A stretch of DNA of 35,732 nt, from positions 1 to 35,732 of the forward strand of contig JAYSTZ010000906.1 of the NCBI GenBank assembly GCA_043719365.1. Reading direction: 5' to 3'. The stretch's first letter is position 1. Each line of letters opens with the position of its first letter. The stretch comes from Verrucomicrobiaceae bacterium. GTDB taxonomy: Bacteria; Verrucomicrobiota; Verrucomicrobiia; Chthoniobacterales; Chthoniobacteraceae. A program made the position numbers and the translations under genes. The notes under the pieces were generated by a model. The model worked only from the letters and a program-made list of their open reading frames with translations, did not search any database and was not told the origin of the DNA. Positions 26,660-31,486 of this stretch are shown here, piece by piece.

Positions 26660-28390
26660 TTAGAACTGGAAGTAAATGAACTGCTTGTAGGCCACGACTT
26701 TCATGTAGAGAGCCACAGCCCACCCGCCACCGAGCAACATCGAGAACAGCCACTCCGGGATGACGCGCCACCACTTCGCAAGGAGGCTGCGCGAGTTCAG
26801 CCAGTGAACGACGGTGAGAGCGCCGAGCACTATCCAAATGAAATTCCCGCATACATTTCTCTTTTGCTGATCCTTGAAAAGGACGAGCGACTCCCATACT
26901 TTCGCCGTGAGCGCGAAGCCGGTTTGGTGCAGCCGAATCGTGGCGTCCTTTCCGTCCGCGCCTTTGCCCGTCCATGTGTTTGATTTGGCGTCGTGTGCAA
27001 GCAATGGGGTGTGCTTTTTCTCCCCGGCTTTCGCAAATGGGTAGAGAAGCGTGTGCTCTTTCACATCCTGAAACCCTGCGCTGGTGCGGATCAGAAGCTT
27101 ACCATCCTTCTCGGTTGGTTTCGCACGGTCGGCGTAAATATCGTTCGCCCGGAAAGGCACCCAGGTGAGCAGCACCCAGAAAAATGTAAGCGGCACGGCG
27201 ACGAACTTCATCACCTTCCCCATGCCTGCCGCCGCTGCGGTGACGCGCGCCCATTCCCGATGAACGATAAGCGCTGCGCCATGCATCGCGCCCCATACCA
27301 CGAAGGTCCATGATGCGCCGTGCCACAACCCGCCGAGCACCATCGTGAGCATGAGGTTGCGGTAAGTGAAGAGCTTCGAACCGCGGTTTCCGCCGAGCGA
27401 GATGTAGAGATAATCACGCAACCACGAGCTGAGACTCATGTGCCAGCGTCGCCAGAACTCCGTGATGCTGTTACTGAAATACGGGAACGAAAAATTGACG
27501 CATAGCTCGTAGCCGAGCAACCGCGAGACCGCGATGGCCATGTCGCTGTAGCCGCTGAAGTCACAGTAAATCTGCCCCGCGTAGCAGAGCGAGGCGGCCC
27601 ATGCGCTGTAGGCGCTAAAGCGCTCCGGCGCGGCAAAATACTCGTCGGACACCTGCGAGAGAGTGTCGCCGATGCACGCTTTTTTGACAAAGCCGATCAG
27701 GAACAGCACGAGACATCCGCGCACGTCGATGCTCGACCATTCGACTTTCTTGAGCGTCTGCGGGAGGAATGTCATCGCTCGCACAATCGGCCCGGCGACG
27801 ACCTGAGGGAAGAAGGCGATGAAGAAGGCGAGGTTCAAAAAACTGCGCTCGGCGGGCAGCTTTCTGCGATAAACTTCGAGGGAGTAACTGAGGCTCTGAA
27901 ATGTGTAAAAACTGATGCCGTATGGCAGGAAAACCTTTAGCGGCTCCCAACTCGGAGTGAGGCCCATCCAGGCCACGACGGCGCGAACGTTTTGGTCGAA
28001 GAAGCCGTAGTATTTGAAAAAACCGAGCACGCCTAGATTCACCAGCAGACTCATGCCGACCCACTGCTTTCGCCTTCGATCCGTCTTCGCGTCCTCAATG
28101 CCAAGACCGACATAGTAGTCCATGATCGTGCTAAACCACAGGAGCGACGGGAACCACCAGCCTGCGGGCAATGCAGACCATTTCCCCGCGAACAAGTTCG
28201 GGAAAAACTCGGACGGGGCACCGATGAAAAAGCAGCCATAGAAGACGTGACTGCACACGAGCAGCCAGACTTTGCGCGAAGTGTTGGAGCGCAACATCCA
28301 GTTCACTCCAAAGATGATTGCGAAGATCCACAGGAAGCGGAATTCGACGAAGAGGATGGGTTTTGCGGGTTCTATGTCTGCGAGTATCAT
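26660..28390 (-). CDS. membrane-bound O-acyltransferase (MBOAT), AlgI/DltB/PatA type
   Basis: 576-aa polytopic protein with [41 protein letters not shown] (invariant His at codon 357, nt 27320-27322) and the C-terminal FIYFQF typical of AlgI-like proteins. A hydrophilic insertion of about 90 aa (aa 419-512) precedes the last TM helices. Confidence 0.93.
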   Translation of the reverse strand: [576 protein letters not shown]

Positions 28391-29412
28391 GGCTGCGGTT
28401 TAAGCGCCTCGGCAATCTGCCGGGCGATCAGGCGTGTGTAAATTTCAGACCCGCGGACATTGAGATGGCCGGGGTCGCGGCGGTTTTCGGGGGCGAAAAG
28501 TTCGGGGTACTTGGCGGGATCGGAATAGTTCAGGAAGGAAATGTTGTCCCTCGGCGCGAAAACAGTGCCTCTCGCGTAGGGCGAACCCAGGAGCATAAGC
28601 CGGGCACCCAGTCGCTCGGCGAGCGCTTTCTTCCATGACAGCGCGACCTGACTCTCCACATCTTCAAAGTCCAAGACGGGCGGCGATTTCAGCACCACCG
28701 ACAGATCTTTTTCGTAGTTACGCAATGCGGACCCGCTCATCAATTCGGCGGTCTTGGGGGCATTGTAACCGTCTTTCCCGATTTTCCACGCGCCATCGTT
28801 CTTGGATGGACCGAAAAGAATTCCGACAATCCATTCATTTCCCTGCCCAAGGCGTCCGGCGTTCCAAGCCCAGTGCTGGATGTGCTCGGGGAAGTCGCGA
28901 AGTCGCTTCCACACGCGCGACAGGTAGCGGCCTGTTGTCCTTTCCGGAGCACATAATCGCGTCCAACAATTCCTCCAAAGGCGCATCATACGGCTCGCGT
29001 CGTGCCAATAGACGGCGCGTGCGGTGCCTTCGTCATCATCAGCGATACCGGATTCCAACGGATTGCATTCAACCAGGATGAGCCGGACGGGCGATGTCCT
29101 TTCAGCGAATGCGCGCTCCATCACAAATTCGTCCTCGGGCGGACGCATCCCGTCGCCGGAGAGATTGAACGAGTTTGTCTTTACGCCATGCGCAGCCATC
29201 TCGGCGTCGAACAAATCGGGAATGATCTGTCGATGCACACGGCTGGAGCCGATGAAGAACGTGTCGTATTCCTCGCCGTGCGTTTCGAGCCAGTCTAGCT
29301 TCGCGCTGATCTGTTGCGGACGCACGGATGGAACTACATGACTGAGCGCAGCCGCGATTACCACGAAGCCCGCGACGAAAGCACATGCGTTGAGCGAAGC
29401 GGTAAATCTCAT
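28387..29412 (-). CDS. membrane-anchored SGNH/DltD-like protein, paralogue 1 (putative MBOAT partner)
   Basis: 341 aa with an N-terminal TM helix. Shared blocks are FFIGSSRV, FNLSGDGMRPPED, LILVECN, VYWHD and YPELFAPENRRDPGHLNVRGSEIYTRL (DxxH). ATGA overlaps occur with the MBOAT start (28387-28390) and the paralogue 2 stop (29409-29412). Confidence 0.6.
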   Translation of the reverse strand: MRFTASLNACAFVAGFVVIAAALSHVVPSVRPQQISAKLDWLETHGEEYDTFFIGSSRVHRQIIPDLFDAEMAAHGVKTNSFNLSGDGMRPPEDEFVMERAFAERTSPVRLILVECNPLESGIADDDEGTARAVYWHDASRMMRLWRNCWTRLCAPERTTGRYLSRVWKRLRDFPEHIQHWAWNAGRLGQGNEWIVGILFGPSKNDGAWKIGKDGYNAPKTAELMSGSALRNYEKDLSVVLKSPPVLDFEDVESQVALSWKKALAERLGARLMLLGSPYARGTVFAPRDNISFLNYSDPAKYPELFAPENRRDPGHLNVRGSEIYTRLIARQIAEALKPQP

Positions 29413-30416: not shown

Positions 30417-31486
30417 TTGCGTTTCAGCCAGTCGGCAAACTCCGCGGCAAAAATCCGTGTGAATTCCTTCGCCCCTTCCGAGTCGAGATGCTCGGCATCG
30501 TAGCGCTGCCCGGGCAAATACAGCGTGGGATAAGTCTCGGGGTGATCGTAAGAAAACTGCGCCACGCCGGCGGGCGGCCAGTCCTTGAAGCGCTGCTCGC
30601 TATTAGCGACAGGAGCCACGACAAAAACCGGCACGGCTCCTTGCGCACGGACCAATGCGATGATCTGTTCCAGTTCCGCGCGAAAGGGCGCGGGCAACTC
30701 GGCTTGCTTCGACGTTTTTTGTAGGCCTGCCAACCCGGTTTGGAACTTGTCTCTTTGGACGCCCTCCAACGGTCGCACATCCAAAGGCTCATATCCGCCA
30801 CCCGAAATCACAGGCGACTTTCTCGGCTGCACGAGCTTCAGTTGAAGTTGCAATGGCTCCTGCCCGCCGCCCACTCCAACGGTTCGCCGCGCCAGCAACC
30901 CAACGTGATAAGCACTCTCGCCGAAACGCCCGGAAAATGAGCCCGGAATCGACCAGATGGTTTGAAGAGTGCGGAAAGTGTAGTACCAGTCGTGCCACCC
31001 GATCGCGCGCTCGGAATACTCGTTCTTCGCAAGAACAGGCGTAAACTCCATCATGTCGATCAGCACCCATCGTGGCCGCACGGGCGTTTCCGTGAGCAAC
31101 TTGCGCAACACGTAAAGACTCTCGGGCGGGAACATGCCATCCTGACCAAAGTTGAACGATTTCAAATCGTGTTCCTGCTGCTTCAGTGCAGCGTCGAACT
31201 GCGCAGGAATGAAGTGATGAACCACCCTGCTCGACCCCACGTAGAGCAGCGAATACTGCGCGCCATGTTCGGAAAGATGCTGCCATTTTCGCCCGAGCGA
31301 ACTGCTTTCCGGCACCGTGATACTTCGCGACTGGATCGCGCCGACAGAAAACAACGCGACGAAAAACAGCGCGATATTCCGAGCGCCCGCGACAATTCTT
31401 TGAGCGCGGGACGGCTGGTTTTTTTCAGCAGTCACGCGTTGCAAAATTGGATTGGGCCTTCGGGCGAATTCACGGCGCGGGAGCAT
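30413..31486 (-). CDS. membrane-anchored SGNH/DltD-like protein, paralogue 3 (most divergent)
   Basis: 357 aa with a basic N-terminal tail of about 35 aa before the TM helix. Blocks are LYVGSSRV, FNFGQDGMFPPES, IGWHDW and YPTLYLPGQRYDAEHLDSEGAKEF. It has LIDMMEF where paralogues 1 and 2 have LVECN. An ATGA overlap with the paralogue 2 start lies at 30413-30416. Confidence 0.6.
   Translation of the reverse strand: MLPRREFARRPNPILQRVTAEKNQPSRAQRIVAGARNIALFFVALFSVGAIQSRSITVPESSSLGRKWQHLSEHGAQYSLLYVGSSRVVHHFIPAQFDAALKQQEHDLKSFNFGQDGMFPPESLYVLRKLLTETPVRPRWVLIDMMEFTPVLAKNEYSERAIGWHDWYYTFRTLQTIWSIPGSFSGRFGESAYHVGLLARRTVGVGGGQEPLQLQLKLVQPRKSPVISGGGYEPLDVRPLEGVQRDKFQTGLAGLQKTSKQAELPAPFRAELEQIIALVRAQGAVPVFVVAPVANSEQRFKDWPPAGVAQFSYDHPETYPTLYLPGQRYDAEHLDSEGAKEFTRIFAAEFADWLKRK

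Follow-up and report, generated by a model that had tools for sequence, protein, structure and literature searches.

The stretch of DNA analyzed here, referred to as the window, comprises 35,732 nucleotides from a Verrucomicrobiaceae bacterium (GenBank assembly GCA_043719365.1, contig JAYSTZ010000906.1, positions 1 to 35,732). It contains a cassette of four genes on the minus strand, in which three genes for related proteins, called partners in the following (parA, parB and parC), precede a gene for an MBOAT acyltransferase (Table 1). An earlier note, made from the sequence alone, had described these as four consecutive genes joined by ATGA stop/start overlaps, and all three junctions (30413-30416, 29409-29412 and 28387-28390) indeed read ATGA on the coding strand, with an overlap of 4 nt each. 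The mutual homology it had claimed for the three upstream proteins was confirmed by BLASTP, which gave 25% identity for ParA and ParB (E 1e-23), 26% for ParA and ParC (E 1e-25) and 38% for ParB and ParC (E 1e-77). Likewise, the blocks GSSR, FN..DGM.PPE, WHD and YP.L..P..R.D..H, which had been listed as shared, are invariant across the three paralogues, and hydropathy analysis revealed one N-terminal hydrophobic segment in each of them, in line with the anchors proposed before. In ParA this segment is preceded by an Arg-rich N-terminus, which fits an anchor with N-in/C-out orientation. A scan for promoters and terminators detected no promoter-like site, and terminator-like sites occurred at the rate of shuffled sequences.

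Table 1. Genes of the MBOAT cassette and their predicted functional motifs (positions in the window)
Feature	Position	Strand	Evidence or remark
parA, first partner gene	30413..31486	minus	357-aa open reading frame (ORF); hydrophobic segment aa 31-49; predicted DltD-like SGNH-fold domain
parB, second partner gene	29409..30416	minus	335-aa ORF; N-terminal hydrophobic segment aa 3-21; predicted DltD-like SGNH-fold domain
parC, third partner gene, MBOAT-proximal	28387..29412	minus	341-aa ORF
MBOAT acyltransferase gene, distal, PatA/AlgI-like	26660..28390	minus	576-aa ORF
parA G84-S85-S86, SGNH block I; S86 predicted nucleophile	31229..31237	minus	conservation in 139 relatives
parA D330-A-E-H333, SGNH block V DxxH	30488..30499	minus	conservation; aligns with DltD D374/H377
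parB GSS (G53-S54-S55)	30252..30260	minus	
parB DEGH (D311..H314)	29475..29486	minus	
parC GSS (G55-S56-S57)	29242..29250	minus	
parC DPGH (D313..H316)	28465..28476	minus	
MBOAT WHG with predicted catalytic His357, within GGLWHGASW	27317..27325	minus	aligns with DltB WHG
MBOAT C-terminal hexapeptide FIYFQF, fits FxYxxF; Tyr predicted acyl carrier	26663..26680	minus	translation verified

The MBOAT and its C-terminal tyrosine motif

The product of the distal gene matched Pfam PF03062 above the gathering threshold (E 7.9e-27; 94.9 bits, cut-off 27), which together with the C-terminal FIYFQF bears out its identification as an MBOAT of the AlgI/DltB/PatA type. The closest solved structures to its core are those of DltB (8jem and 6bug; E 2e-27 over residues 157-383). 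The WHG histidine is invariant in the alignment examined (A6) and was also found in MBOATs of related loci. The cut-off of the NCBIfam DltB equivalog TIGR04091 was not reached (154 vs 375 bits).

While the FIYFQF ending had been reported in the earlier note and is present, its identity as an acyl-shuttle tyrosine motif was not recognized there. The C-terminal FxYxxF "acyl shuttle" was defined by Anderson et al. (J Biol Chem 2025; PMC12148441). Systems of the PatA/AlgI/WssH type carry it as part of the MBOAT itself, whereas in the Dlt pathway it is borne by the microprotein DltX; PatA auto-acetylates the tyrosine of the motif from acetyl-CoA, and the tyrosine then donates to PatB (PMC12148441). 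All 37 full-length MBOATs adjoining partner genes possess a C-terminal FxYxxF, which is FIYFQF in 36 enzymes and FVYYQF in the MBOAT of a Saprospiraceae locus (L042). In the enzyme of the window, the hexapeptide follows two hydrophobic segments (aa 513-531 and 548-566), which match the extra helices described for PatA. The fusion of FIYFQF to the MBOAT argues for the PatA/AlgI type and not for the DltB plus DltX type, and on these sequence features the enzyme is placed in the acyl-CoA-using, self-shuttling class. Since the shuttle motif resides on the MBOAT and not on a microprotein, the acyl donor is probably acyl-CoA instead of D-alanyl-DltC.

Between the core of the MBOAT and its last two hydrophobic segments lies a hydrophilic insertion of approximately 90 residues (aa 415-505; window 26876-27148, minus strand). 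It occurs in the window, in locus L003 and in the Myxococcota locus L036 but not in the versions from Chthoniobacter, L028 and Leptospira.

The partner proteins: family, fold and predicted catalytic residues

None of the three partners matched a Pfam or NCBIfam model at threshold. The DUF1574 model (PF07611) scored 17.4 bits with ParA, below its threshold of 29.1, and gave no match with ParB and ParC. When 50 relatives were compared with Pfam at E<=1, only two weak matches to DUF1574 and one to Lipase_GDSL_2 appeared, and 10 distant representatives did not match any Pfam model at E<=0.1; the models of AlgX/AlgJ, DHHW (PatB1) and PatB/DUF459 were among those without a match in both sets. A comparison of the family with a true DUF1574 protein by hhalign yielded a probability of 2.3%. 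The NCBIfam search of 139 members revealed no meaningful match, and searches of the PDB sequences with 50- and 139-sequence profiles returned chance matches only. Thus, a characterized model of another function, to which the family might have belonged, was not encountered at threshold among Pfam, NCBIfam and PDB sequences. Weak matches to the NCBIfam model TIGR02171 (Fibrobacter paralogous lipoprotein family) were obtained with nine of the 139 members (best E 2.7e-4), which may point to a remote relationship. A word-indexed search retrieved 94 relatives, all of them unnamed or termed 'hypothetical', and an exhaustive search with a hidden Markov model (HMM) detected 4,933 clusters of relatives at E<=1e-3, 1,185 of them at E<=1e-30 (clusters at 50% identity from public genomes and metagenomes). 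A tblastn search of 72,556 plasmids with ParB gave no match, and full-text literature searching found no paper on the family or its multi-copy arrays. The partner family is large, widespread and nameless in Pfam and NCBIfam.

The fold of two partners was modelled with AlphaFold2, giving a mean predicted local distance difference test (pLDDT) of 90.2 and a predicted template modelling score (pTM) of 0.85 for ParA, and values of 91.4 and 0.89 for the ectodomain of ParB (aa 31-335). In a Foldseek search of the PDB, the first rank for the ParA model was taken by Enterococcus faecium DltD (6pfx_A; E 1.6e-3, probability 0.99), followed by SGNH/GDSL esterases. With the ParB model, DltD chains from four PDB entries occupied ranks 1 to 7 and 9 (best E 9e-4), and rhamnogalacturonan acetylesterase, AlinE4 and TesA came after them. 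For both models the first-ranked DltD had a probability of 0.99, with template modelling (TM) scores (TMq) of 0.34-0.39, and the target-normalised TM score of the SGNH/GDSL esterase matches reached 0.62. The SGNH-like fold that had been expected for the paralogues was hence recovered in both proteins that were modelled, with DltD as best match. These models modestly favor a three-layer alpha/beta/alpha fold of the DltD-like/SGNH kind (Pfam clan CL0264), by the consistent ranking in two independent models and not by the strength of the scores.

In an alignment of 139 diverse relatives (approximately 25% identity on average), G84, S86, N112, G231 and H333 of ParA are invariant and D330 is conserved in at least 90% of the sequences, so that the expected conservation of the GSSR serine and the DxxH motif is well borne out. 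A second alignment comprised 79 copies from 38 loci (the window, L001, L003, L006 and L009-L042). In all of these copies G-[ST]-S and the His and Asp of DxxH are retained, except that two Bacteroidota copies have Asn in place of the Asp; at the position of N112, two parC-type copies (L011 and L012) have Ser. In the corresponding alignment of 30 DltD sequences, G70-S71-S72-E73, D374 and H377 are invariant, and for Lactiplantibacillus plantarum DltD the triad Ser74/Asp373/His376 has been described (PMC13653941). S86, D330 and H333 are the predicted triad of ParA, and by their motifs all three paralogues look catalytically competent. The WHD block (residues 164-166) was considered as an Asp/His catalytic pair in the manner of AlgX and was discarded because, in contrast to the universal S86 and H333, it is lost in the Bacteroidota members. 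Among Verrucomicrobiota copies it is kept almost throughout, an exception being L040 from Chthoniobacterales with WLD, and its role is more likely related to the acceptor or to structure.

Linkage to the MBOAT, copy number and evolution

Partner and MBOAT genes were mapped by HMMs in the window and 39 non-redundant related loci, which stem from Verrucomicrobiaceae, Chthoniobacteraceae, other Verrucomicrobiota, a Myxococcota metagenome-assembled genome (MAG) and Bacteroidota. In 30 of the 40 loci the partner genes directly adjoin an MBOAT gene; homologues lacking such a neighbor, which would have spoken against a functional connection had they prevailed, are the minority. The number of partner copies beside the MBOAT is one in seven loci, two in seven, three in nine and four in three, and in the remaining four loci of this group whole partner-MBOAT units are duplicated. 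Thus, the arrangement of three partners and one MBOAT does recur, as the survey suggested in the earlier note was meant to establish, but it is not a fixed layout. The four loci with duplicated units (L025, L028, L029 and L031, all from Verrucomicrobiota MAGs) carry the whole unit in tandem, partner-MBOAT-partner-MBOAT, rather than a multiplied partner alone. Five of the 10 other loci are cut by contig ends and at least five (L030, L037, L041, L053 and L054) are truly MBOAT-less. For some solo partner copies, the same genome harbors a full cassette on another contig.

In a neighbor-joining tree, first-position (parA-type) copies share a clade with the first-position copies of Chthoniobacter. 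The parB and parC types form sister clades, and positional orthologues of parC a clade of their own. These tree positions indicate that the paralogues are old and positionally conserved and did not arise by recent tandem duplication.

Two of the MBOAT-less loci have neighbors of some interest. L054 contains three tandem partner genes, one of them truncated (3741-6717), amid numerous fragmented genes for sulfotransferases and family 2 glycosyltransferases, which may be a hint at a glycan acceptor in this organism or the sign of a degraded locus. The solo Saprospiraceae member of L041 (7851-8855) lies beside ORFs whose products look, on visual inspection alone, like a cytidylyltransferase and a NeuB-type nonulosonic-acid synthase.

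Comparison with known MBOAT-SGNH systems

By analogy, the mechanism of the cassette would be closest to that of the peptidoglycan O-acetyltransferase PatA/PatB from Neisseria and Campylobacter, while the structure of the partners is nearest to DltD. Like PatA, the MBOAT has two additional C-terminal hydrophobic segments and a terminal FxYxxF (FIYANF in PatA), and like PatB the partners are separate, N-terminally anchored, presumably periplasmic proteins with an SGNH-like fold and the order Ser...Asp..His. Both systems have no carrier protein and are stand-alone cassettes outside of polymer-synthesis operons. On the other hand, the partners are not PatB/DUF459 proteins according to Pfam, there are three of them instead of one, and no Ape1-like esterase was found among the neighboring ORFs tested.

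With the Dlt system for teichoic acid D-alanylation in Firmicutes the cassette shares its closest structural relative of the partners, DltD, including the N-terminal anchor and the GSS(E/R) block, as well as the structure nearest to the MBOAT core, DltB. A helical insertion, a '...PP...' strand and the C-terminal DxxH are collinear with DltD in a relaxed hhalign comparison. By contrast, DltA, DltC and DltX, all present in the Listeria dlt operon, were not detected among the ORFs of the window that were tested; the shuttle motif is part of the MBOAT and not of a microprotein, the partners fail PF04914 and the MBOAT stays under the DltB equivalog cut-off. Moreover, teichoic acids are not expected in a host of the Gram-negative type such as a Verrucomicrobiaceae bacterium.

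The alginate system (AlgI/AlgJ/AlgX/AlgF) is the published precedent for one MBOAT acting with more than one SGNH-like extracytoplasmic protein; AlgF reportedly also takes part in the acetylation of alginate together with AlgI, AlgJ and AlgX. The partners differ from these proteins in that they do not match AlgX/DHHW-type models, and in AlgJ and AlgX the catalytic residues run in the order Asp-His...Ser. Whereas the alg genes are located in an operon for alginate biosynthesis and export, and AlgI and WssH are generally embedded in polymer-synthesis operons, the cassette is without conserved neighbors and stands alone like PatAB and Dlt.

Uncharacterized orphan MBOATs, each next to one or two partners that are anchored SGNH-like or hypothetical proteins, exist on replicon p1 of Leptospira interrogans and on plasmids of Bacteroides finegoldii, Bacillus thuringiensis and Pseudomonas asturiensis. 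The gene order is MBOAT-SGNH-MBOAT-DUF1574 in Leptospira and SGNH-SGNH-MBOAT in B. finegoldii, while in B. thuringiensis and P. asturiensis an MBOAT is accompanied by a hypothetical protein. The Leptospira MBOAT ends with FLYFAF, which is similar to FxYxxF, and its SGNH partner aligns with the family at the motifs of blocks I and V; the B. thuringiensis partner aligned with the N-terminal half of the family with an hhalign probability of 86%. These systems differ from the cassette in that their partners belong to DUF1574, Lipase_GDSL_2 or unassigned families, and among the five plasmid loci inspected no three- or four-copy array was found.

Proposed function

On the basis of its linkage to the MBOAT, the partner family can be putatively assigned to the class of MBOAT-SGNH envelope acylation systems. 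Taking gene structure, family relationships, similarity of the fold, conservation of the motifs and linkage together, the four genes are likely to form a self-contained module for extracytoplasmic acylation that operates as follows. Cytoplasmic acyl-CoA would supply the MBOAT with an acyl group, most probably acetyl or some other short acyl, and the WHG histidine of the MBOAT would load it onto the tyrosine of the enzyme's own C-terminal FIYFQF at the outer side of the membrane. The acyl-tyrosine would then be offered to the membrane-anchored DltD-like transferases, each of which may accept the acyl group on the second serine of G-S-S, with the C-terminal Asp-x-x-His assisting, and pass it on to a hydroxyl group of an envelope acceptor. 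For the three anciently diverged paralogues, the most likely roles would be to act on separate acceptors or positions, or to work together around the one MBOAT as a relay or hetero-complex.

Several points weigh against this proposal. The TM-scores to DltD in the Foldseek searches amount to just 0.33-0.39, with E-values of about 1e-3. The DltD model PF04914 did not match any of the three paralogues, the 50 family members or the 10 distant representatives, although it recognized Listeria DltD with 411 bits in the positive control. The comparison of the family with the 30-sequence DltD alignment by hhalign gave a probability of 4.9%, which is not significant, and it is this comparison that pairs D330 and H333 with D374 and H377 of DltD. 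With a relaxed threshold, a full-length collinear alignment was obtained in which GSSR is paired with GSSE of DltD, but since the collinearity appears at this threshold only, it supports the order of the motifs and not homology. The spatial clustering of the triad S86/D330/H333 is a prediction from conservation and the order of secondary structures. Partners without an adjacent MBOAT in at least five loci imply that pairing in cis is not obligatory. Finally, we infer the donor, the direction of transfer, the activity as transferase rather than esterase and the acceptor, and one or more of the paralogues could be esterases and not transferases.

The last point leads to the assumption that writers and erasers are mixed, i.e. 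that one or two paralogues are O-acyl esterases and only the rest transferases. A precedent exists in Ape1, which is encoded beside PatA and PatB. The second tier of fold matches consists of esterases, and the SGNH fold allows both hydrolase and transferase chemistry (PMC9487903, PMC12148441). However, the paralogues are all of one family, to which the transferase DltD is structurally closest, and the asparagine N112 on strand 2, the functional equation of which with that of other SGNH proteins is conjectural, is kept in all three. Known erasers such as Ape1 are moreover members of a different SGNH family. A division into writers and erasers appears improbable. Still less probable, and in our opinion hardly credible, is a function of the partners outside of acylation, as periplasmic or anchored proteins that are merely syntenic with the MBOAT. 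The lack of a significant sequence match to characterized families, TM-scores to DltD below 0.4 and the copies without an adjacent MBOAT would fit this notion. By contrast, the linkage spans Verrucomicrobiaceae, Chthoniobacteraceae, a Myxococcota MAG and a Saprospiraceae MAG despite differing flanks, the nucleophile-type G-S-S and the DxxH motif are strongly conserved in the 139 relatives, DltD ranked first in two independent models, and remote relatives of the family, which are the partners of MBOATs in B. thuringiensis and Leptospira, can be aligned with it at these motifs.

How a single MBOAT cooperates with several partners can be envisaged in two ways. It is conceivable that only a single paralogue takes over the acyl group from the MBOAT while the others, on one and the same acceptor, have downstream or scaffolding roles, similar to AlgJ and AlgX. 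The ATGA coupling suggests balanced synthesis as for a complex, the order of paralogue types is conserved between loci, and the alginate system provides a precedent with two SGNH-like proteins per MBOAT (PMC9487903). However, every copy possesses the full predicted catalytic set and none looks like a pure scaffold, and a copy number varying from one to four between lineages is not predicted by a fixed stoichiometry. We regard such a relay as unlikely. That one MBOAT feeds three transferases is plausible, and as a tentative and somewhat doubtful extension, the acyl-tyrosine arm of the single MBOAT might be a hub for two to four DltD-like transferases, non-redundant and of ancient divergence, that decorate several envelope acceptors or positions.

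To our knowledge, published MBOAT-SGNH systems are pairs or relays. If the hub exists, its layout of one shuttle and many transferases would be new, and it would be borne by a family of approximately 5,000 clusters that no database names. The kind of system is known; the new parts are the unnamed DltD-like partner family and the conserved presence of two to four copies per MBOAT. In bacteria studied so far, MBOAT-SGNH systems affect lysozyme resistance, the control of autolysins, properties of the biofilm matrix and resistance to antimicrobial peptides, and their acyl-tyrosine shuttle mechanism was worked out as late as 2023-2025. The partner family, structurally nearest to DltD and yet used by bacteria of the Gram-negative type together with a PatA-type MBOAT, is a concrete candidate for addition to the databases, and the cassette offers a testable case of one membrane acyl donor serving several transferases.

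Genomic surroundings and possible acceptors

Among the ORFs of the window and its flanks that were tested, no gene for a glycan synthase, an exporter, DltA, DltC or DltX was detected, in agreement with the claim that genes for glycan synthesis, export and a D-alanyl carrier are lacking in the neighborhood. A census of Pfam families in 113 flanking ORFs from 17 diverse loci revealed no family in more than three ORFs. Due to this absence of a recurrent neighbor the cassette appears self-contained, and its acceptor is less likely a dedicated exopolysaccharide than a constitutively made component of the envelope, be it peptidoglycan, lipopolysaccharide or lipo-oligosaccharide, or another general glycoconjugate. 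Acceptor chemistry of Verrucomicrobiota envelopes would be new biology.

The nearest glycosyltransferase gene (8373-9500) and a fragment of a dcw cluster (135-7588, minus strand), comprising MraY, MurF, MurE, an FtsI-type penicillin-binding protein and MraW, are situated approximately 17-26 kb from the cassette, and both are absent from the orthologous locus L001. An Amidase_3 N-acetylmuramoyl-L-alanine amidase is encoded at 16126-17019 (plus strand). As a clue to the acceptor, these peptidoglycan genes (MraY, MurF, MurE, FtsI, MraW and the amidase) were given no weight, since they lie 10-26 kb away and are absent from L001.

A gene for a 529-aa protein (31511-33100, minus strand), 24 nt upstream of the cassette, was examined as a possible fifth component. 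It is syntenic with the cassette inside Verrucomicrobiaceae loci. In distant Verrucomicrobiota, however, its homologue stays paired with an IscA-like gene and has no cassette downstream, and the candidate was rejected for this reason. In the window the corresponding IscA/HesB-like Fe-S protein gene is located at 33104-33460 (minus strand); the pair is kept with or without an MBOAT cassette downstream. By eye, the 529-aa protein shows a hydrophobic segment at its N-terminus and a Pro-rich linker; it did not match Pfam, and its 119 relatives are all unnamed or 'hypothetical'.

Further genes of the window encode large or unassigned proteins. A 1,288-aa protein (9511-13377, minus strand) contains a GDSL lipase/acylhydrolase domain, DUF7133, HEAT repeats and a cupredoxin/plastocyanin-like domain. 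A 2,164-aa protein (17478-23972, plus strand) with four lamin-tail domains as well as CotH kinase-like and PKD domains is conserved beside the locus in L009. L009 has strong homologues of two overlapping ORFs on opposite strands (24004-26025, minus; 25577-26650, plus), neither of which matched Pfam. Their overlap probably results from over-extended N-termini, because internal Met residues precede segments resembling signal peptides.

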